Below the pieces are notes generated by a model that saw nothing but the letters and a program-made list of their open reading frames with translations, ran no database searches and was not told the DNA's origin. Of a stretch of 64,000 bases of DNA, positions 1,656 to 61,229 are shown in pieces. The DNA comes from a virus. Taxonomy: Duplodnaviria; Caudoviricetes. A program made the translations under genes and the position numbers. The stretch spans positions 192,001-256,000 of IMG/VR virus record IMGVR_UViG_3300028833_000057; one strand, 5' to 3'. Within the stretch, counting starts at the first letter, position 1. Each line of letters begins with the position of its first letter.

Positions 1656-4600
1656 TTAGCTAGCTCTATTCACGACAAATTCGAACACAAAGCGTTCCAT
1701 GATGTCGATGAAGGCTAAATCAACCTTAACTCTACAGATCTTCTGTTGTCTATCATATGCAGAAGCAGAGACAACCGGGCTGATGTATTCATAACCACCA
1801 GCAAGCACCTTATTATTGGCAATATTATTAAGAGCTTCCTGGAGATGACCACGAATGTCATCCGTAGAGAATTCCATACGATAATTACGTGCTTCCTGTT
1901 CCATCTGTCTCTTAAGCTTCAGAAGCGAACGAACAGCATGAATCATAGACAACGGAGAAGTAATCTTCTGTGAAGTATTTTCCGTAGCGAACATGGTCGC
2001 CTGAGTGTCTTGTTCAATGTAGTTGATCTGATTCTTATACAGTTCAGTCTTTTCAGGTTCGGTCGGGAGCCAAGATACATCGCGGAAGCCCGCAATTGTA
2101 CCACGACGAGGACCAACAAAGTTATAGATTTCTGTATAAGCAGCATCGTTCTGAGGAATCTTAGTAGCAAGGAAGAAAGTCGGCGTAACACGCACAGGCT
2201 TACCTGTCCATTCATCATTGATTCCAAGAGTCTGAGAGAAGATAGACGTAAAGTAAGTATTATATTGCATCTGATCTTTACGCTTAGCAACAGCTTGAGA
2301 AGCATTTGCACAATCATGGTTCATATCAAGAATAGTGACACAATCACCTCTTGTAAGAGCAGCAAGATCGCTCATGGCATTCTTAACCGTGATATCATAG
2401 TTCGCATCCAGCATGACATCAAACACACAAGTCTGTGTATTGGTGACGATAGGATCTGTTGTACCATTATAAGCACGAGTCAAAGCCTGAGTTAGCGTAG
2501 AATTGGTGATAATTTCATCTGTTTCAGGATCGATGGTTTCATAACCCCAACCATTACCTCTAGAACCACCAGCCAGATAGAACACAGCGTTCGAATCGAC
2601 GGTGTTGTAGTAGAATTCAGAAACAAACGGATCGTTATAAATAACTTCACCAGTAGAGTCAGTCAAACTAGTATCCAGATGGCAAAGCTGTGCATCATAA
2701 CCAATAGCGGACATAAGGTCTGTATATGCAACATCTACAAAATCAGTTTCCTTATAATTATCGCCAAAGGTAGCTGCATTCAGTTCATCAAGAGTAATCT
2801 GGTTGAAAATGTACTTAATAACCTTATCGGTGTTCGGCACAATTTCATTACCATCTTCATCCTTAACGGCATCACCATTAGCATCTGTAATCTTGAGCTT
2901 CGTATCAATGAAGTTCTGGAGATTATCATAGTTGGCAACACAGGTCAGGTAAGAAGAATAACGGTTGACCACATCTTCAATGAACAAGCTTTCCTTGGTA
3001 CCAGAAATAGCATCTGGATCAAGAGCCACATCAAAGGATTCACGCACAATTTCAGAAGTATTGCTCTTCTCAATCACGGAGAGAGTAAACATACTCCAAT
3101 CAGGATAAGTATTATTGTACGCATTTTCATAAGTAAGCGATACAGCAAGTCTATTGTACCAAGGACCAGAACCCTTAGGTAAGAATCTAGCAAATTCGAC
3201 AAAGCGAGTGCTAGACAGACGCATATCTGCAGCATCAACAGTCTGAATATTCACACGATTTTCATCAACGACATATCCACGCTTGAAGTCAGCAGGAGTT
3301 GCACCTTCATGAGCGATATTGTCCTTGCTACGATCAGTGAAAGCTGTAGCGCAGAAGCCAATAGCCTTGTAAGTATTTTCAATGTAGGCACTATTAGGAA
3401 CGAAACCAGAATCTTCATAAGTAACCTGATAGTTCTGATTCTTAACATATTCGCTAATAGAGATAGCCTTAAAGGAGATGAGTTCAGTAGTGTCATCCAA
3501 AGAAATGAGTGTAGCACCATTTGCAGTGGAGTAGAAGCTGAGCTTAATGGTGAGATTATAAGAATCACCAGAAGATGTAGCACTAATAGCTGGAGCAATA
3601 TTCCAAACAGGAACAGCATAGTTGTTCTCACCAGTAGGAATAATTACATCCTGATTAGCGGCATTTTCAATCAGCTTTGCAAACACTTCAGGAACTTCGA
3701 TACCTTCAATAACGAATTCAGCATCTGTATTAAGAGCATTACCTTCTTCAGAGCTGTAAAGACCAATAGCCTGCAGATCAGCATCCGTAGAAGATGCAGC
3801 GAAGCCCTTAGTCTCTTCGTCAATAATAGATTCTCTGTACTTCTGTCCAAGATTTCTGATCTGAACATCGGCAAATGTATCTGTAGCCTTCAAAGAAGCC
3901 TTAATCTTCTTAAAGCCTTCCTTTTCAGATTCAGAAGATTCGAACTTAAAGAGCGGAGCAAGATAGCTCAAAGCTCTAACAGCCTTGTTGAAGTCAGCAC
4001 CATTACCCTTAGCATTGAAACTAATTGTAGCAGTTTCATTGAAAATGGTTTCAGTGTTCTTCACCATAGATTCGAGGACTGTGTCATTGGTGAGTTCACC
4101 ATTAGCAGTAACCGGTTTTCTATCTTCTGACTTAGTTTCGTTAAAGATTTCAATATCATCATTGGTCATGTAGAACCCATAAACAGGTTCGCCATTGGAC
4201 GCATAGTTGACATTGTAGGTCTTTACACGTTCGTAAATACCAGTAGACGGAACATCAGTTTCCTCAATTTCACGAATCTGAGCATAAGACGGAGCATTGT
4301 AGTTGTAATAACGAATATAGTTCTTCGTCATTGCAGCAGTCTTATATGGTGTACCATCTTCATAGAAGACTTCATAGCAGTAATGCCATTCAGCTTCAGA
4401 ATTCATAACGGTAAGCTTGAGATTCTGATTTATCAAGCCAAGATTCTTGAAGGCGTAGCTAGCATCTTCAAAGGTCTTTTCATAGCATGGACCATAAAGG
4501 CTCGGATCCATTGTACCAAGCTTATTAAGATCTTCCTGGCTAATGGCAGAAGAACCAGCGGTTAAGCCTTGGTTATTGCCATCCTGAATACCAACTGATC

Positions 4601-10772: not shown

Positions 10773-11375
10773 TTATGTCTTTATAAGGATAAGTCTAGCC
10801 TCATAAGATACTGAATCTGAATCAAAATTACAATGGTCTAACATATTGAGAACCATTGAGATTTGTGATGATAATCTGTGAGCAGTTTCATATGCGATAA
10901 AGTTCTTATTATTTTTTTCAAGAAGTTCTTTATTAATCGGAAATGTCAGTGGATTATATGATGCTTTGACATTTCCATCATCATCGTATTTATCATCATC
11001 AGGTACGTCCTCATACAAATCTGTAATTAAATAGCATCCCAATGCAGTATAAATACTCTTTAGCTCAGTGATATAGTTGCTTTCAATTTTATTTAGTAAG
11101 TGCGATAAATATTTAAGATCTATAGATCTAATATCATTATATCCTTCATCTAAATTTTTAAATATCATCTTGAATTCCGAAGATAATGAACTAGAATCTT
11201 CCATATCTGCTAAACTTTCAATATTAAGATCGCCATAAATACTTAAGCGTTCAAGATCATATTTAAGATCTTCATTAATACAACTAAGATCACAATTTTT
11301 ATTTATGCAAAATAAATGCCAATTGTTTTTATTTTTTTCTTTATATTCTATATAGACTTCTGTATAAGATGACAT
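10773..11375 (-). CDS. hypothetical protein
   Basis: 200-aa ORF with GAGGT RBS. Confidence 0.7.
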   Translation of the reverse strand: MSSYTEVYIEYKEKNKNNWHLFCINKNCDLSCINEDLKYDLERLSIYGDLNIESLADMEDSSSLSSEFKMIFKNLDEGYNDIRSIDLKYLSHLLNKIESNYITELKSIYTALGCYLITDLYEDVPDDDKYDDDGNVKASYNPLTFPINKELLEKNNKNFIAYETAHRLSSQISMVLNMLDHCNFDSDSVSYEARLILIKT

Positions 11376-11444
11376 ATTGTACCTCTTTATTTAATTAAAT
11401 GTAAAAAATATAGAATTACCATTTAAGGTAATTCTATATCTAAA

Positions 11445-12437
11445 TTATTGAGCAGCACTAAGCATTTCATTGAATTTTGATTTTAATTCATTTAGGTATT
11501 GTTCAGCTGCTTCTTGATTGTCAAATGGTTTTAAAGAAGCAAGTATATTATTGTAACAGAATGACATGATTTTAGAAGATAACGTTATATGATTTGTAAT
11601 TGCTTCTCTACGTTTACTAACTATATCTCTGCACGCGTCAGTAAGAACCTTAGAATCAAGACCTTTTTCTTTTGCTTTATTTTCTATAGAGTCTATGTTA
11701 CGGGCAACATTTTCCATTTGATGTTCATTAGATGCTTTTATGTGTTCAAGTTCTTTACCCATTCTTTCAAGAGTCATATTTATACTCTCAATCTCATCTA
11801 AATGACGATTTCTGTTTGGATATGCTTTTACTTGTACAGCATTAATTGAATCTTTTATAGATTTAATGTATTCATTCTGAGAATTTGCTTTTTCCTTTTC
11901 AACAATATTGGAAAATTCTTCAAGAATTTTATTTATATTGCCTGCATCGTTTTGCTGCATAATAGCATCTTCAAATTTAAAAAGTGTAGCGTTAATATTA
12001 TTGAATCTTTTTACTACAAAAGAATCTGGAACATAATCTATGTTGGCTATATAATAAACCATAGAAGAACTAGACCCAGCTGCTTCTGTAGCTTTATTTT
12101 CTTCATTAGGCTTAGCATTAGTATTATTTTCTTCACCAGGTTTGCCAGAAATCTTCTCTTTAATTTTCTGATACATTCCTCTAATAAAAGAAATAAGCTT
12201 ATTAAATAAATTGACAATAATATCTTTAACTTTAAGTGCAAAGGCTTTTAAAGCTCCACCAACTTTCTTAGCAACATCTGCCAATCCTTCATTGGCAATA
12301 ATAGAATAATAATCAATATTAAGGCTACATAATGTAGAATAATATTCCTGTGATGAATTCATTATAGTATTCATGAGTTCAAAATAACTACAAGTTTCTG
12401 TAGCCATAAGATTATGACGTAAATGATCTAAATACAT
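11445..12437 (-). CDS. putative internal head protein (paralog family, ANE/G site)
   Basis: Propeptide, then IANEGL, then amphipathic Lys/Phe helix; resembles ORFs at 39281, 49964 and 51007. Confidence 0.65.
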   Translation of the reverse strand: MYLDHLRHNLMATETCSYFELMNTIMNSSQEYYSTLCSLNIDYYSIIANEGLADVAKKVGGALKAFALKVKDIIVNLFNKLISFIRGMYQKIKEKISGKPGEENNTNAKPNEENKATEAAGSSSSMVYYIANIDYVPDSFVVKRFNNINATLFKFEDAIMQQNDAGNINKILEEFSNIVEKEKANSQNEYIKSIKDSINAVQVKAYPNRNRHLDEIESINMTLERMGKELEHIKASNEHQMENVARNIDSIENKAKEKGLDSKVLTDACRDIVSKRREAITNHITLSSKIMSFCYNNILASLKPFDNQEAAEQYLNELKSKFNEMLSAAQ

Positions 12438-12500
12438 AAAATCCTCTTTAAAAATATTTATAATAATATGTAAAAAAAAAAATAAGGGAAATATTATCCC

Positions 12501-13016
12501 TTATGGTTGTACAATTGTAGCACTATCAAAATATAATCCGGGATAAGACCATCCCATATTTGCAAGTTTCTTATATAATTTCTTGCCTTTATCTGTAAGC
12601 TTAAAATCAAATAATTCTGTACTATTTGCTAATACCCAAGTGAATTTACTATCTGAATCAAGTGGCATATATGAAGAGTATGCAAGCTTCAAACAAAAAC
12701 CTTTAGCTTTTGCTGCTTTCATAATCTGAATAGCAACTTTTGCAAGAGATACTGAAGCTTTGCAAGCATTAAATGTCTTAAAAGGCTTATTCTCATATAC
12801 AACATAATTGCTAATAGTACCGACAATTCCAAAATCGCATTCGCTATTTAGACCATCGGTACCACCACGTAATTCAATATACTTCTTGGATAACTTTTCA
12901 AATTTTTCAATAAGATCAGATCCAGCAATATCTTTTAAAACCGGAATAGGTATACACATTGTTAGATCATCTTTTGTCATAAAGAATTTATCTTCTATTT
13001 TAACCTTTGAAGACAT
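12501..13016 (-). CDS. hypothetical protein
   Basis: 171-aa ORF with GGAG RBS. Confidence 0.65.
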   Translation of the reverse strand: MSSKVKIEDKFFMTKDDLTMCIPIPVLKDIAGSDLIEKFEKLSKKYIELRGGTDGLNSECDFGIVGTISNYVVYENKPFKTFNACKASVSLAKVAIQIMKAAKAKGFCLKLAYSSYMPLDSDSKFTWVLANSTELFDFKLTDKGKKLYKKLANMGWSYPGLYFDSATIVQP

Positions 13017-13383
13017 AGGGCTTTTTCTCCCTTACTAAAAGTGTCTTATTAATTAAATAATGGCGAAGGACTTTAGAATATTTCTTAGGAATAGCCTTGG
13101 GTATAATCTCATTATTTTCCAATTTCTTTTGCCAATAAAGCCAAGAATTATATTCTACGCCATAAATCTCTTTAAAATCTTGTCTATATACTATTAACTG
13201 ATTCTTAGCTTTTTCTTTATGTTTTTGATAAAATCTAGCAGCTCTAGCTGCTTGACTTTCTTTAGGAGTAAGTTTTGGCTTTGGTGCTGGTGTTGTCACA
13301 TTCTTTTGAATAGCCAACATCTTTTCCCAAGAACTAGCAGTTTTCATTTTTGCTATTTGTTGTGCGGTTAACTTTTTTGTCAT
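13000..13383 (-). CDS. small basic hypothetical protein
   Basis: Lys/Arg-rich 127-aa ORF with ATGA overlap to the upstream gene. Confidence 0.65.
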   Translation of the reverse strand: MTKKLTAQQIAKMKTASSWEKMLAIQKNVTTPAPKPKLTPKESQAARAARFYQKHKEKAKNQLIVYRQDFKEIYGVEYNSWLYWQKKLENNEIIPKAIPKKYSKVLRHYLINKTLLVREKKPYVFKG

Positions 13384-54036: not shown

Positions 54037-54088
54037 TTTTACTCCTTGTTAAAGATTAAGTTGAAAAGGTTCAAAATTTAATATAATA

Positions 54089-54559: not shown

Positions 54560-54653
54560 GATTTATCTCCATAAGAGTTCAAAATTTAATATAAAAAATA
54601 AATTCTATACAGATAACTAATTAATGAAGAAAAGCCTGCAAAAAGGAGAAATT

Positions 54654-56082: not shown

Positions 56083-57174
56083 CTACTCAATATAAGAGAA
56101 TGCCTGTCCTTCACCGAAGTATTTTTCGATGATAGAAACGACATTTTCCTTATTGATGATTTCAAAGTTCTTGCTGGGCACAGTATACCCAGCATGTTCA
56201 TTGAAAATCCTGCGTGCAGTCTCATGCTTAAAGAGTTCTTTATACTCTTCTTGAGCAGCAAACTGCTTACGGATGATATCAATTCGTTCATCCGTAACAT
56301 GTTGTCTGACATTTGCCAAGAGATCCTGCATGAGTGGAAGCACCTCTTTGGGCTTATCACTCATAGACAAGAATGTTGGCAATCTTCCACCCATTTCAAG
56401 CAGGATACCACCAGTCATGTATACAAGACCGCGTTTCTCACGCAGTTCCTGCATAAAGGGCGACTGAAGACCTTCCGAAAGTGCATTGATAGCACTAGCC
56501 AGAAGAAGTGATTCATCTGGATTGCGACACGGTTTGTTTGCAGTAATCCAGATGGTCTTCTGCGGATTTCCGGTTTCCTTCTCAAAGGAAGGTTCACCAG
56601 AAATCCTCTCGATCTGAGGGAAGATATGCGGGTACAGCTCTTCATGGCTTTCACCTTCAAGCATCGAATTCGGTCCAATAGACAAAATCCAAGGCCTGGT
56701 AAAGATCTCCTTACAGTTGTAAAGATAATCTTCGTATTTAAATGCATTCACACCAGACTCAATGCCAGTGCTGCCATAAAAGTCAAAATTATCCCACAAC
56801 ATGTGGTGCAATGCCGCACGGATGGGTTGAGAGAATACCATACCAATTTCTTGGCAAACCGTATTTTTTTCGTTCTCAAAAGTAGCCTTATCCACAGGCT
56901 TTCCATGGATAATAGCCTTCGAGAGTTCCTCAGCCAGCGGCTCAATGTTCTTAGTGAGTCCTGAGAACTGGATCACCATGTTCTCATTGGAGGTATGCGC
57001 CTCCTCACTAATATCACCGGCCTGGAGAGCATCCCTCAAGTGCTTATAATGGTGGCACAAGAGATGTTCCAAGAGATGAGATGTACCCCTGATGCTCTTA
57101 CGCTCACTAAGCGGAGAGCAATTATCGTAGACAAAACAAAGTTTCGAATACGGTAAAGAGTTCTGAATATGCAT
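56083..57174 (-). CDS. M16 family (insulinase-like) zinc peptidase
   Basis: GTSHLLEH, ENEKNTVCQE, S..MQELREKRGLVY. Confidence 0.9.
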   Translation of the reverse strand: MHIQNSLPYSKLCFVYDNCSPLSERKSIRGTSHLLEHLLCHHYKHLRDALQAGDISEEAHTSNENMVIQFSGLTKNIEPLAEELSKAIIHGKPVDKATFENEKNTVCQEIGMVFSQPIRAALHHMLWDNFDFYGSTGIESGVNAFKYEDYLYNCKEIFTRPWILSIGPNSMLEGESHEELYPHIFPQIERISGEPSFEKETGNPQKTIWITANKPCRNPDESLLLASAINALSEGLQSPFMQELREKRGLVYMTGGILLEMGGRLPTFLSMSDKPKEVLPLMQDLLANVRQHVTDERIDIIRKQFAAQEEYKELFKHETARRIFNEHAGYTVPSKNFEIINKENVVSIIEKYFGEGQAFSYIE

Positions 57175-57284: not shown

Positions 57285-57599
57285 TTATATCTCTATTTGT
57301 GAGCCATATAACCAATGAGATTTAAGAATTATTTTTATAAAATTCCATTTCGCAATAGATATGATATCTTTTCCGGTAATATTTTTACGTGACAATAGAT
57401 TATTCTTGGCAAGTTCTAAATTTTTATAAGCATAATTATCTGGATTTTTAGGTTTTTTATTGTTTATTTCATTTTCTAAATTATTCATAAAACGTTCAGC
57501 AAAAATAAAACATTCGAAGCATGCACCTCCAATGATCTTATCTTTGATATATGACTCTTTAAAGTGATCATAAGATTTTTTATCTTTTAGCAGTAGCAT
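57285..57599 (-). CDS. hypothetical protein
   Basis: 104-aa ORF with GAGGA RBS. Confidence 0.65.
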   Translation of the reverse strand: MLLLKDKKSYDHFKESYIKDKIIGGACFECFIFAERFMNNLENEINNKKPKNPDNYAYKNLELAKNNLLSRKNITGKDIISIAKWNFIKIILKSHWLYGSQIEI

Positions 57600-57830
57600 A
57601 ATATCCTCTTATTTAATTATTATTCTATAATTTAATATAATATGCAGGATAAAAATTTTACAAAAAAAAAAAATCTCTATAGCCTTATATGGACTATAGA
57701 GATATTTTTCAGTGTTATGCTACTTTGCACCATTAGTTTAACAGATTATGACACTTGTATGTTTAGGGAATAATTTTGTGTGATAAGGTCTTATTAAACT
57801 AACTAGTTCGTTAAGCTAGATCTACACTAG

Positions 57831-57902
57831 AGCCTAATGAATGATTCGAACACTCGACATATACATTACAAATGTATCGTTCTACCACTGAACTAATTAG
57901 GC
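57831..57902 (-). tRNA. tRNA-Thr(TGT)
   Basis: GCCTAAT/ATTAGGC acceptor, ATACA-TT-TGT-AA-TGTAT anticodon arm. Confidence 0.88.
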
Positions 57903-58101
57903 GGAACCTTAACATAAGTACTGACTAAATCCACCCCTCGGTGCGATAGAGCCATCGTCATCACTGACTACTTCAAGGCCATTCAACTAATCTATATGAA
58001 ATACAAATTAGTCTGACCACTTATGTTAAGGCATTTAAAAGTTATTGGAGATATATCGGTGTGTGTGGGATTGGATCCTTTTTGAAGATATATCCCCAAT
58101 A

Positions 58102-58174
58102 TTGGAATGGTGGGGTTCGAACCCGCGACCCACGCCTTAAAAGGGCGTTGCTCTACCAACTGAGCTACATTCCA
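58102..58174 (-). tRNA. tRNA-Lys(TTT)
   Basis: TGGAATG/CATTCCA acceptor, ACGCC-CT-TTT-AA-GGCGT anticodon arm. Confidence 0.9.
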
Positions 58175-58181
58175 TAGCATA

Positions 58182-58255
58182 TCGGAATAGCCGGATTCGA
58201 ACCGACGACATCTTGCTCCCAAAGCAAGCGCTCTACCAGACTGAGCTACATTCCG
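58182..58255 (-). tRNA. tRNA-Pro(TGG)
   Basis: CGGAATG/TATTCCG acceptor, CTTGC-TT-TGG-GA-GCAAG anticodon arm. Confidence 0.93.
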
Positions 58256-58350
58256 TAAAGAGCTTAGGGATGGAGGAAACAAACCACCCCTAAGCCTTTT
58301 CACCTTTCAAAAGGATACCCTTTCGGATACCAGAATTTAATATAATGATA

Positions 58351-58608
58351 TTAATTATTCATCAACGCATTCTGAAGAACGTAACCTTCAAGTTCCCAGA
58401 CCTTATTTTCAATGCGTTCTCTACAAATCTGCTCACCAAGATTCTGATCATAATTTGCCGGGTCTACACATGAGCTAGACTCACAGATCACAAATCCATT
58501 CGGAAGAGTACAGCAAACAACTGTAGTCTTTTCACCCATCTTAATGCTTTCAAACTTTGAAGCATCCAAGATCGCCTTAATATCTTCTGGCGTAATTCTA
58601 TTCTTCAT
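58351..58608 (-). CDS. Gp49/Gp66-family phage protein
   Basis: TTVVCCTLPNGF...SSCVDPANYD..LG..IC...VWELEGY; AAGGA RBS before ATG 58608. Confidence 0.85.
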   Translation of the reverse strand: MKNRITPEDIKAILDASKFESIKMGEKTTVVCCTLPNGFVICESSSCVDPANYDQNLGEQICRERIENKVWELEGYVLQNALMNN

Positions 58609-58636
58609 ATAGCATCCTTTGTTGAATGAAAAAAAA

Positions 58637-58842
58637 ATATACCCGTATACGGTGGGAATCGAACCCACATTTCCCATCTATAAGGTGAGATTCGAACTCA
58701 CGTGGCGTTGTTAACGTCTTCACGGTTTCCCCCAAGTCAACAGTTTGCTCAAGTCAACTCTGTGTAAGCATAGTATCAGAACTTACAGGGTAATAGGTTT
58801 GCTTGTATCCGGCCTTGCATACTTTACAGTATAGAGGTATAT
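58637..58842 (-). ncRNA. tRNA-like element with two tandem T-arms
   Basis: GTGAG-TTCGAAT-CTCAC and GTGGG-TTCGATT-CCCAC; ends pair (ATATACC/GGTATAT). Confidence 0.55.
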
Positions 58843-58860
58843 TGTAGAATCTAAAAATAA

Positions 58861-58944
58861 TAGCTAAGGTGAGACTTGAACTCACACGATGTTGCCATCA
58901 AGGGATTTTAAGTCCCCAGTGTCTACCACTTCCACCACTCAGCC
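58861..58944 (-). tRNA. tRNA-Leu(TAA)
   Basis: GGGGA-CT-TAA-AA-TCCCT anticodon arm, long variable arm. Confidence 0.92.
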
Positions 58945-58954
58945 ATGTAAGATA

Positions 58955-59191
58955 TTACTTCTTACCTTTCAATTTTAAATTTGCTTTCTGCCAATCTGAA
59001 ACTGTTTTATATTTCTTTTCTTCACTAGACCAATCAGTGCAAGTAAACTGCCAACCTGGATCTCTATCAATTCTTTCTACACATGCATCACAAAATTTAG
59101 TTGTAAATAATGAACCATCTTTTAAAGATTCAGTTTGTACCCTTTTAGGTTCCTTATCAAAGGGACGACAGCATTTACTGCATATGAACAT
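58955..59191 (-). CDS. small Zn-finger-like protein
   Basis: CSKC...CDAC, located between two tRNAs. Confidence 0.6.
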   Translation of the reverse strand: MFICSKCCRPFDKEPKRVQTESLKDGSLFTTKFCDACVERIDRDPGWQFTCTDWSSEEKKYKTVSDWQKANLKLKGKK

Positions 59192-59195
59192 ATAG

Positions 59196-59277
59196 TACCT
59201 AATGTAAGACTCGAACTTACACTTCTTGCGAAACTTGCTCCTAAGGCAAGCGTGTCTACCAATTCCACCAATTAGGC
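59196..59277 (-). tRNA. tRNA-Leu(TAG)
   Basis: CTTGC-CT-TAG-GA-GCAAG anticodon arm, variable arm. Confidence 0.92.
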
Positions 59278-59286
59278 GGGAAATTA

Positions 59287-59493
59287 TTAAACTCTTACAC
59301 CATGCAATGTATTCATACTACACCCTCAAAAGGGTTCTCTTCAAGCATTAGCAACAGTCTTAAGGGAATTCATAAGGGAAGTTGCATTGATTTCCGATTA
59401 GCATCCTACATGAGATCCTTGCAAGGCATTACGGAATTTTATAGTCCGTCCTGTAGTTTCCTTATGTAATCAGTTCGTAGTATTAGAGTTTAA
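59287..59493 (-). ncRNA. putative ~207-nt multi-stem ncRNA
   Basis: Nested inverted repeats (see findings). Confidence 0.6.
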
Positions 59494-59654
59494 ACACTTC
59501 ACAATCGTACCTAACCTATAATCAAAAGGTTTCATCTGTTTAGAAGTTGCGCTAACTTTATGAGGTAAAAGTATATCCATGTACGGGAACATAGATAAAG
59601 ATGGAGTCAAACCATCTAGCGGATACCATTGTGTAAAACTTATTAAAATCTTAG

Positions 59655-59727
59655 CTGCTTCACATGGACTCGAACCATGGACAAGCGGATTAACAGTCCG
59701 CTGCTCTACCAACTGAGCTATGAAGCA
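59655..59727 (-). tRNA. tRNA-Asn(GTT)
   Basis: TGCTTCA/TGAAGCA acceptor, GCGGA-CT-GTT-AA-TCCGC anticodon arm, G73. Confidence 0.94.
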
Positions 59728-59748
59728 ATTTATAATTTGTTATAAAAA

Positions 59749-59822
59749 TGGACAGACTCGGACTTGAACCGAGAACCCGCAGGTTATGAGTCTGCTGCGC
59801 TAACCAATTGTGCCATCTGTCC
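59749..59822 (-). tRNA. tRNA with CAT anticodon (elongator Met or Ile2)
   Basis: GGACAGA/TCTGTCC acceptor, CT-CAT-AA loop; lacks initiator features. Confidence 0.88.
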
Positions 59823-60172
59823 ATTGTGATTCTCTAGAACGTGGATTTCAGGAAAATCTATGACAAATTTTATCTAGAGAATCACTTTATAAAAATTAGT
59901 GGCTAATTGCTGGAGACACAACCTAGGAAGACTTGCAGAATAACTAGGTCACAACAATTAGCCAGAAATGAAAACTGAGTAGAGTAAAACGCAGGATGTA
60001 AGGGATTACTTTCTTAGTTGAATTCTACTCAGTCCTCTTCACACAACTCTAACGAGCAACATATTTGCAACGTCAAAGGAGGTTCATGGAAAATATTTGA
60101 CGATCTTTCTTCGTCAATACTAAATTATAATCGTTCAGCACATTTTGATTACTACCAGGGCCGTACCAGCTG

Positions 60173-60251
60173 TGGATCAACGGAGATTCGAACTCCGAAC
60201 TTTCTCATGCTTTGCAACTTGAGAGTGCTTTACCAATTAAGCTAAAGACCC
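60173..60251 (-). tRNA. non-canonical tRNA-Ala-like (G3:U70, expanded anticodon loop)
   Basis: GGGTC/GATCC-A acceptor, normal D and T arms, 12-nt loop AGTTGCAAAGCA. Confidence 0.6.
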
Positions 60252-60446
60252 ATGACTTTCTAATCTAGCATATTATAAGAGATGATTAAAGGTACCTACA
60301 TCTCTTATAAAACTTCTAGTAATGCTATAGGGATGCACAGTCTGGCTAAAGGCTATGCATCCCATAGCACCCCTTCTCAACTATGTGAGCGACATATTCG
60401 CAACACAACGGAGTTCTTCAAAATTTAATATATCAATGAAACTATA

Positions 60447-61229
60447 TTAGAATGGAAGATCATCAGCTTCTTCTTCGCTATACTGAGGAGCTGCTGCTTG
60501 CTGCTGAGGAGCAGCATTACCAGAATTAGCCCAAGACTGTGCAGTAGACGCACCTCTACGAGAAGGCGCTCTAGGAGCAGATGTACCACTGGTATTCTGA
60601 CCACCATTATAATTATCGCCACGGTTCGGCTTGTGATCCATAGGAGATACAAGCACACGACACATTTCATTTACAAATTCACAGAATGTGTCAAAAGACG
60701 GATTTTCTACAAAGATAGTTGCTTCTGCATTTGCATCTGTAGAATTGAAACCTTGGAGATTAATATTTTCAAAATAGAAGGAATGTGTATAAGAAATTTC
60801 CTTGCTGTTATTATCTGCCTTACCAACATAGATAATAACACCATCCTTCATATCTTCTTCTTCAGTAGCAGATCCGTCAATCAAACGGAAATGACTACCA
60901 TGGAAAGAGATTTCCATGTCAAGGATTTCTTTAGCCTTATAATGCATAAGAACCTTGCGAAGAACCTGACAATCTTCTGCAGACAATGACATATAGATAG
61001 CATTGTCGTAATCGTATGTTTGTTCACCCTTCTTAGGAGTTCTGCCACGCATGTCATTGAAAACTGCTGCAATAGAGAGGGTAGCATAAGCACGACCGAA
61101 GCCAGCAGTGGCATAGCCAAGCTGCATAGCACCAGTCTTATTATTGAACAAAGTCGTACACTTGGTACGAACATAGTTCGGTTTATCTTGTGTATTGTTA
61201 TTCGAATTCTGCTGATACGAATTAGCCAT
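60447..61229 (-). CDS. putative single-stranded DNA-binding protein
   Basis: Disordered tail ending EEEADDLPF; directly downstream of the DNA polymerase gene. Confidence 0.65.
   Translation of the reverse strand: MANSYQQNSNNNTQDKPNYVRTKCTTLFNNKTGAMQLGYATAGFGRAYATLSIAAVFNDMRGRTPKKGEQTYDYDNAIYMSLSAEDCQVLRKVLMHYKAKEILDMEISFHGSHFRLIDGSATEEEDMKDGVIIYVGKADNNSKEISYTHSFYFENINLQGFNSTDANAEATIFVENPSFDTFCEFVNEMCRVLVSPMDHKPNRGDNYNGGQNTSGTSAPRAPSRRGASTAQSWANSGNAAPQQQAAAPQYSEEEADDLPF

Follow-up and report, generated by a model that had tools for sequence, protein, structure and literature searches.

Do the spacers of a phage tRNA cluster merely separate tRNAs, or are they RNAs in their own right? Phage tRNA clusters are usually annotated as tRNAs and empty spacers, but in the cluster analyzed here, constraint on the spacers equals that on the tRNAs. 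It lies within 64,000 nucleotides of viral DNA (the window, i.e. the whole stretch that was analyzed), which comprise bases 192001-256000 of the 267,826-bp IMG/VR virus record IMGVR_UViG_3300028833_000057. The record is rated 100% complete and represents the genome of an AT-rich jumbo phage (~30-35% G+C). On the minus strand of the window, the array from 60432 to 57673 is best explained as a phage tRNA operon, and every stretch of it that is neither tRNA nor coding as a self-contained RNA module, kept as such and closed by a stem of 10-17 bp. The modules are termed E1 to E13 in minus-strand order (Table 1). Since their stems are kept by compensating mutations in relatives, the operon probably also yields stable small RNAs, and we consider it fairly probable that at least the modules with conserved sequences accumulate and act in trans. 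Transcription, cleavage, accumulation, and trans function of the spacers are what we infer from the comparison of sequences described in the following.

Selection on RNA structure in the spacers

A sequence-only reading of the array had named ten stem-closed elements. By folding and by inverted repeats, all ten were found on the strand of the tRNAs, within 1-3 nt of the places named; two of them stand as elements but received new ends (60266-60319 instead of 60266-60327, and 60321-60371 instead of 60324-60368). Compared with dinucleotide shuffles, three spacers are much more stable, with fold z-scores of -6.5 (57903-58101), -5.4 (59824-60172), and -5.2 (60252-60430); scores are weaker for 59278-59653 with E8 and E9 (-2.9, moderate) and for 58630-58859 with E10 (-0.7, not exceptional). 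When perfect stems of at least 11 bp were counted strictly, the array was not exceptional compared with the rest of the genome. Therefore, the case rests on folding energy and conservation, and the decisive evidence is comparative.

Relatives were collected via the 260-aa gene directly upstream of the array (60447-61229, minus strand), the product of which has no Pfam match and was labelled SSB-like because of its acidic DDLPF tail. Contigs with homologues of this protein (41-86% identity in metagenomic contigs) and seven JGI metagenome loci gave ~15 related loci, while a search via the 78-aa open reading frame (ORF) of the array added one further cluster of relatives only. The best relatives (L001, L010, L013, and L014) show the gene order of the window, with tRNAs, ORFs, and modules gained or lost, and most spacers of the window map to relatives by blastn with 67-93% identity. 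When 57700-60450 was compared by distant blastn with 50,697 phage records, the matches were on tRNAs only and no record covered more than 8% of the query, and no relative was found when IMG/VR was searched by single protein and by alignment. Pattern scans of IMG/VR returned no match for the E8 pattern, 5 for the E13 core, and 13 for the E10 5′ motif; all 18 were judged chance matches, in which nhmmer found nothing beyond the pattern and which were without tRNA neighbors.

The long and often perfect arms, the precise deletion or insertion of whole hairpins between relatives, and the location just downstream of the genes for a DNA polymerase and the SSB-like protein would also suit elements that act at the DNA level, such as cruciforms, replication or recombination sites, or small mobile palindromes. 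For such elements, G.T and A.C mismatches should be equally frequent. Instead, internal mismatches in 73 distinct stems, taken from the non-coding spacers of the window and its relatives, were G.U in 19 and A.C in 2 cases (binomial p = 2e-4), in agreement with the sequence-only reading, which had noted G:U pairs on the minus strand where stems were checked. The stem search used Watson-Crick seeds only and thereby favored neither wobble type; a looser first pass had given 33 G.U vs 7 A.C. Also, in 31 of 34 spacers the fold of the sense strand is the more stable one (total -2487 vs -2158 kcal/mol). Together, the G.U bias and the stability of the sense strand indicate selection on the minus-strand RNA, i.e. 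in the sense of the tRNAs, and not on DNA palindromes. Moreover, the modules are single copy in the genome and share no common repeat unit, and the multibranched E8, E9, and E13 are not simple palindromes, so that a DNA-level role appears highly improbable. Direct repeats in the array are limited to the T-arm family of E10 and tRNA-Leu, the 5′ ends of tRNA-Lys and tRNA-Pro, and a 16-nt internal repeat in E12. A CRISPR-like or other repeat array was rejected, as there is no repeated unit between unique spacers.

Conservation of the stems in relatives, on which the small-RNA proposal of the sequence-only reading had been made to depend, was found in the form of pairing kept through compensatory change (E1/E2, E8, E9, E12, the E5 slot, and E11). 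In the leader, 9 of the 30 pairs of E1/E2 are compensatory, and 98.1% of the alignment cells are paired vs 88.3% after shuffling and 41-60% when the partner was slid. For E2 by itself, 7 of 16 pairs have changed on both sides, with 99% of cells paired in 7 loci; in E1, the CUCC tract pairs with the downstream GGGG. E3 is conserved with a compensatory change from A-U to G-C in L001, L003, L010, and L011, and E7 has three compensatory pairs and a loop sequence that is kept in L001, L010, and L006. Homologues of the E5 slot, assigned by position with anchoring in 6 loci, have stems that differ at most positions, stay paired, and share a CUAG base; the stems of E11 homologues likewise differ at most positions with pairing kept. 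For E6, blastn found no homologue in the relatives, making it an extra module of the window only.

At the other end of the array, the five E12 homologues (all beginning with UAUUG or GUUGA) vary with compensation at 10 of 14 stem positions, and 69 of 70 cells are paired. MAFFT misaligned these variable stems and was therefore replaced by an end-anchored comparison. The first base of E12 (58101) is the first one after the tRNA-Lys discriminator, and the equivalent base after tRNA-Pro or tRNA-Lys is used in L010, L013, and L014. Conservation of its loop motif, AAACAUCC..AARCAC, extends to L005, L008, and L009, distant relatives with 54-57% identity of the SSB-like protein, where the motif lies in the open loop of a long-stem hairpin elsewhere in the operon. 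The core hairpin of E13 is kept through compensatory changes; L001, L010, and L014 each have a different, fully paired closing stem. L001 cleanly lacks E12, and L013 lacks E13. The linker AACUUUUAAAUG between the two modules is conserved; linkers between neighboring modules are in general short and AU-rich. The distant relative L005 carries a 757-nt leader (1182-1938) upstream of tRNA-Met with ~11 long hairpins (z -14.4), which is homologous in position only and suggests that the architecture outlives the sequences. Three overlapping hairpins of this leader reuse one 13-nt arm (AGUCCGCUGCCAG) and could form alternative structures.

In E8, a closing stem of 10 bp surrounds a four-way junction, the parts of which include a T-arm-like hairpin (stem of 5 bp, UUUGACU loop), a further hairpin, and a single strand that is conserved. 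It is present in 9 loci and, in 7 of them, has a mean column identity of 91%, loops and the ~18-nt joining strand included. Its 38 pairs are kept in 99.1% of cells, with 5 compensatory pairs in helices 2 and 5. A hammerhead reading of E8 was rejected, since the CUGAUGA-like stretch varies at core positions (CAGAUGA in the window, GCGAUGA in L013) and no GAAA follows stem II. E9 was found in the window, L003, and L010 only, and these three sequences give three compensatory pairs in the closing stem. In the same slot, L001 and L014 have a stem-closed module of ~95 nt that is unrelated to E9, and L012 and L013 have only a 9-bp hairpin, the stem of which matches the E9 closing stem. These variants suggest that cargo was gained in, or lost from, hairpin loops.

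The origin of one module can be named: E10 is a derived copy of tRNA-Leu(UAA), as judged from sequence similarity. The 3′ two-thirds of E10 align to the adjoining tRNA-Leu(UAA) (local alignment z 7.4) with the anticodon loop lost, and the T-arm regions of both form one direct-repeat family (30-nt repeat, 80% identity). The closing stem (58637-58842) has 13 of 14 bp paired. Homologues occur in L001, L010, L012, L013, and L014, tandemly duplicated in L010 and L012, and their closing stem, T-stem, and internal hairpins covary. In these relatives, E10 has ~190 nt, a closing stem of 10-14 bp, one internal hairpin with a conserved GAUACUA-type loop, and one canonical T-arm directly against the 3′ strand, followed by the U-run; the window copy has two T-arms.

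Such an origin, together with the T-arm-like hairpin of E8 and the coming and going of tRNAs, ORFs, and an intron between relatives, raises the question of whether the modules are decaying tRNA genes, i.e. neutral debris of a fast-evolving tRNA island without any RNA function. Neutral decay would not keep stems of 10-17 bp paired through many compensatory changes, and neither the 19:2 ratio of G.U over A.C nor the 91% column identity of E8 would be expected from it. In addition, the Rfam tRNA model (RF00005) finds nothing in E8, E9, E10, E12, and E13 at E up to 10, and ARAGORN detects no tRNA there. We therefore regard debris as very unlikely and retain structured RNAs selected on the tRNA strand as the explanation. 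A search against Rfam, which had been suggested as a check of the small-RNA idea, assigned the spacers to no known family: in the window and 11 loci, neither the gathering score nor a limit of E up to 10 gave anything besides tRNAs and one group I intron (L005). No tmRNA was detected by ARAGORN or Rfam.

Layout of the tRNA operon

The features of the array are listed in Table 1 in minus-strand order. None of the tRNAs of the array encodes CCA. Conservation in the region is highest for the odd tRNA between E3 and E4 (96-99% identity in L001, L002, L003, L010, and L011). The 78-aa ORF starts 3 nt past tRNA-Leu(UAG) and ends 9 nt before tRNA-Leu(UAA); any Shine-Dalgarno sequence would fall within the tRNA acceptor stem, which suggests a tRNA-punctuated, nearly leaderless mRNA. 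A smaller hairpin lies near E11 at ~58310-58328. E1 and a part of E4 share the apical motif UUGCR-AAUAUG-YYGC and a preceding (C)CUCC tract, and the motif recurs in relatives. E4 of the window also holds ACCUCCUUU, which is identical to the 3′ tail of Bacillota-type 16S rRNA and is not kept in relatives.

Table 1. Features of the tRNA operon in minus-strand order; positions refer to the window.
Feature	Position	Strand	Description	Basis
TATATTAAA, head of array	60424-60432	-	promoter-like motif	promoter function putative
E1	60376-60413	-	leader hairpin, apical motif UUGCG-AAUAUG-UCGC, enclosed by CUCC/GGGG helix	fold; 2 compensatory pairs in helix
E2	60321-60371	-	hairpin of ~19 bp, semi-conserved UUAGCCAGA loop	fold, covariation
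E3	60266-60319	-	12-bp perfect hairpin, 14-nt loop, extended by outer stem	fold
Odd tRNA (tX)	60173-60251	-	G3:U70, 12-nt anticodon loop	Rfam 40.9 bits; ARAGORN only if 5-nt intron allowed
E4	60038-60172	-	spacer with 7-bp hairpin (60097-60117) and E1-like hairpin (~60038-60091)	fold; 77-93% identity in 5 relatives
E5	59974-60033	-	unit of ~60 nt, 11-14 bp closing stem	fold
E6	59900-59964	-	65-nt unit, inner ACCUAG/CUAGGU hairpin	fold, inverted repeats
E7	59826-59885	-	13-bp perfect stem, 34-nt loop; ends 2 nt before tRNA-Met	fold, inverted repeats
tRNA-Met (CAU)	59748-59823	-	no encoded CCA	ARAGORN, Rfam
tRNA-Asn (GUU)	59654-59727	-	no encoded CCA	ARAGORN, Rfam
E8	59500-59633	-	134-nt multibranched RNA	alignment, covariation
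E9	59287-59493	-	207-nt multibranched module, variable-cargo slot	fold
tRNA-Leu (UAG)	59195-59277	-		ARAGORN, Rfam
78-aa protein gene	58955-59191	-	CxxC...CxxC (zinc-ribbon-like)	conserved in relatives; no Pfam family
tRNA-Leu (UAA)	58860-58945	-		ARAGORN, Rfam
E10	58628-58842	-	~205 nt, two T-arms, 9-U run at 3′ end	fold
Phage_gp49_66 family protein gene	58351-58614	-		Pfam PF13876, E 7.8e-25
TATATTAAA, second copy	58336-58344	-	promoter-like motif before Pro-Lys-Thr part	same position in L001, L013
E11	58261-58296	-	12-13 bp hairpin; ends ~5 nt before tRNA-Pro	covaries in 5 loci, with G.U pairs
tRNA-Pro (UGG)	58182-58255	-		ARAGORN, Rfam
tRNA-Lys (UUU)	58102-58174	-	discriminator A at 58102	ARAGORN, Rfam
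E12	58043-58101	-	59 nt, 15-bp stem with one G.U, 29-nt C/A-rich loop	fold
E13	57907-58031	-	125 nt, 13-bp perfect closing stem, conserved core hairpin; ends 4 nt before tRNA-Thr	fold, inverted repeats
tRNA-Thr (UGU)	57830-57902	-		ARAGORN, Rfam
Intrinsic terminator	57673-57703	-	12-bp stem and run of at least 10 U, closing the array	terminator scan
TATATTAAA, third copy	57631-57639	-		

The motifs that the sequence-only reading had labelled early-type and placed at 60425-33 and 58337-45, pointing into the array, correspond to TATATTAAA on the minus strand, one base off in position. In the window, TATATTAAA occurs in 10 copies vs 5.9 expected, which is not significant; nine of the ten are on the minus strand. 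Between variable flanks, the copy heading the array is the same in 9 related loci, and 16 nt including it (60417-60432) recur identically at 54070-54085 and 54578-54593. Genome-wide, many TATATTAA sites have a TTCGTAAAATTTCT-like box ~11 nt upstream and an A-N3-TG box downstream, and many follow terminators. These sites look like a phage-specific bipartite promoter class, as far as can be told from sequence. Matches to sigma-70-type promoters in the array were not above shuffle frequency. Strong ribosome-binding sites of the AGGAGG type are found near many of the promoter-like motifs and give a hint of a Bacillota-like host, in which RNase Z handles CCA-less tRNAs.

As an isolated terminator, only the hairpin closing the array (57673-57703) was recognized, and a homologous hairpin directly follows tRNA-Thr in L001, L010, L013, and L014. 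The two other minus-strand matches of the terminator scan are parts of E4 and E8 with weak U tails, and the only internal U-run is the one after E10. The closing stem of E10 followed by nine U could be a leaky terminator, as the gene behind it has no room for a promoter of its own; the hairpins might form a series of pause or attenuation sites that sets the dose of upstream vs downstream tRNAs. Apart from E10 and the final terminator, however, no stem is followed by a U-run: the other modules have loops of 14-40 nt or more, and many of their stems enclose 29-40 nt, unlike terminators. Attenuation is hardly probable as a general explanation, and the stems are better read as closing RNA modules.

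Neighboring genes and insertions in relatives

Besides the gene for the SSB-like protein, a minus-strand gene for a divergent family-B DNA polymerase (PF20286) lies just upstream of the array. Past the array terminator, a 104-aa ORF (57285-57599, minus strand) is 33% identical to a protein of L001. This L001 homologue matches the Pfam family Tad4, a type I Thoeris inhibitor, at 9.4e-16, while the protein of the window reaches 13.7 bits only. By this similarity, the ORF is likely an anti-defense gene beside the array. A further minus-strand gene, for a peptidase M16-like protein (56083-57174), has 43-48% G+C compared with ~30% in the surrounding genome region and is kept in relatives. A search of genome contigs with this GC-rich gene, aimed at the host, found no close bacterial relative.

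Insertions in the relatives concern both tRNAs and the stretches between them. In L005, L001 (about 11350-11736), L007, and L012, the anticodon loop of tRNA-Met holds an insert of ~265-300 nt, whereas the tRNA-Met of the window has no intron. The insert of L005 (1967-2234) is a group I intron by Rfam (60.6 bits), and ARAGORN reads the others as intron-containing tRNAs. Between tRNA-Met and tRNA-Asn, L003 carries a PDDEXK_5 nuclease-like gene (3379-4017), and between two tRNA-Leu genes, L001 carries ORFs of 133 and 187 aa without assigned function (12132-12533 and 12772-13335). These extra inter-tRNA ORFs fit a tRNA island rich in mobile genes.

Proposed processing and comparison with known systems

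The sequence-only reading had proposed a polycistronic precursor from which tRNA processing releases several discrete small RNAs. Two parts of this proposal are supported, namely RNA structures selected on the tRNA strand, as judged from covariation and strand asymmetry, and a polycistronic layout in which spacers abutting tRNA ends are flanked by a single conserved promoter-like motif on one side and a single clear intrinsic terminator on the other. The release of the RNAs is still a prediction. In the mechanism that we propose, one or two phage promoters (TATATTAAA at 60432 and 58344) would drive long precursors carrying the tRNAs, the two small protein genes, and ~13 modules. Host RNase P would cleave the 5′ end of each tRNA, and as CCA is not encoded, an enzyme of the RNase Z type would cut just past each discriminator. 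These cuts would fall 0-5 nt from the stems of the tRNA-adjacent modules E7, E11, E12, and E13, and the short AU-rich linkers between neighboring modules could offer sites for RNase Y or RNase E. Because modules abut tRNA ends, cleavage by RNase P and RNase Z would leave RNAs with both ends in a helix, and RNAs with buried ends should be stable against exonucleases and accumulate. An action in trans, on a protein or a complementary RNA, would then be probable for E8, the E13 core, the E12 loop motif, the E1/E2 leader, and E10, while the fast-changing E5, E6, and E9 slot may do no more than insulate the folding of tRNAs and protect ends.

Insulation might also be all that the modules provide. 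They would then act in cis only, as insulators or as processing or stability elements: stems would prevent mispairing with tRNAs, serve to position a nuclease (RNase P, RNase Z, or one specific for double strands), and shield the precursor, and the spacers would be degraded after processing. The constancy of closing stems while cargo is swapped, lost, or inserted within loops would suit such a role, as would the free change of stem sequence in E5, E6, and E12 and the fact that each module sits against a tRNA or another module. Insulators, however, need no conserved unpaired sequence, which is present in the loops and joining strand of E8, the loop of E7, the loop motif of E12, and the core of E13. 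Stem length may be a second point: except for E2 with ~19 bp, stems have 12-17 bp and mostly fall short of the ~two helical turns that typically flank the mature species at RNase III sites. Neither RNase III nor a CCA-adding enzyme was matched in the phage genome, whereas control genomes were matched. A purely cis-acting role is possible but appears rather unlikely to us, and we prefer RNAs that accumulate for the sequence-conserved modules.

Several observations weigh against this preference. All compensatory pairs of E8 are due to one lineage (L012/L013), with 31 of the 38 pairs and all helices other than 2 and 5 invariant; for the modules in general, covariation stems from few lineages, with some rows nearly identical. 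A search for antisense targets in the phage genome gave chance-level 13-14-mers only, besides the shared promoter motif. The turnover of cargo, with E9 replaced, E12 or E13 lost, and E6 restricted to the window, implies that not every module is essential. The nucleases named above are assumptions, and a hairpin that begins directly at its cleavage site might impede RNase Z instead of aiding it.

A more far-reaching and doubtful extension would be that the operon doubles as a small-RNA factory, from which a dozen exonuclease-resistant RNAs are freed early and which forms a counter-defense island together with the neighboring Tad4-like gene. For pairing with a host RNA, E12-type modules would expose a conserved seed of ~15 nt (AAACAUCC..AARCAC) in their open loop, with the stem scaffold free to evolve. 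E10 and E8 would be decoys or baits for host proteins that recognize the shape of tRNAs, such as tRNA-cleaving defense nucleases or processing and modification enzymes.

No Rfam match was obtained for at least five RNA families (E1/E2, E8, E10, E12, and E13), and several families of the array are apparently undescribed. If the modules accumulate, the phage would possess a natural polycistronic array of tRNAs and small RNAs, and stem-closed modules touching tRNA ends would provide a simple rule for finding phage small RNAs. The modules would then also be candidates for RNA-based host takeover or counter-defense in an uncultured clade of jumbo phages.

Parts of this arrangement have counterparts elsewhere. 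In the tRNA-miRNA units of murid gammaherpesvirus 68 and in the tRNA punctuation of mitochondria, tRNA-shaped cut marks free neighboring hairpins or mRNAs. The 78-aa ORF, set only 3 and 9 nt apart from the tRNA-Leu genes on its two sides, resembles this principle, but those systems are eukaryotic or organellar with other enzymes and downstream pathways, and the array gives no hint of a miRNA-like pathway. In bacteria, the 3′ external transcribed spacer of the E. coli glyW-cysT-leuZ operon is a sponge for small RNAs. With this class of spacer RNAs, which is supported by the literature, the array would share that a functional RNA arises as a by-product of tRNA precursor processing. Spacers of the E. 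coli type are single and short and pair with Hfq-dependent small RNAs, whereas the array has many stem-closed modules and no identified target.

Phages also encode Y RNA-like RNAs, and phage Yrl1/Yrl2 are bound by a phage Ro60 (PMC12135203). By joining a long end-to-end closing stem with a tRNA-like T-arm, E10 follows the general plan of YrlA in the YrlA/YrlB type. A Y RNA reading was nevertheless rejected: the best scores with RF02553 were 33.8 and 21.6 bits vs a cut-off of 69, both across true tRNA pairs and not spacers, and neither Ro60/TROVE (PF05731) nor RtcB was matched in the complete 268-kb record, although control genomes were matched; a Ro60 might instead be encoded by the host.

By analogy, the closest precedent appears to be RNA C and RNA D of phage T4 (species 1 and 2; rnaC and rnaD). 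They are encoded in the T4 tRNA cluster and made from tRNA precursors by the tRNA-processing enzymes of the host. As in the array, structured non-tRNA RNAs thus lie among phage tRNA genes on the same strand. The differences are in sequence, with no similarity to the array in the blastn search of the 50,697 phage records, and in arrangement: T4 has two RNAs at one end, while the array has ~13 modules of several unrelated types that are interleaved with the tRNAs, several of them with stems touching tRNA ends. The T4 RNAs RNAC and RNAD are stable, Northern-validated RNAs with a function that is still reported as unknown (PMC9697503), and the comparative example described here may help to approach it.

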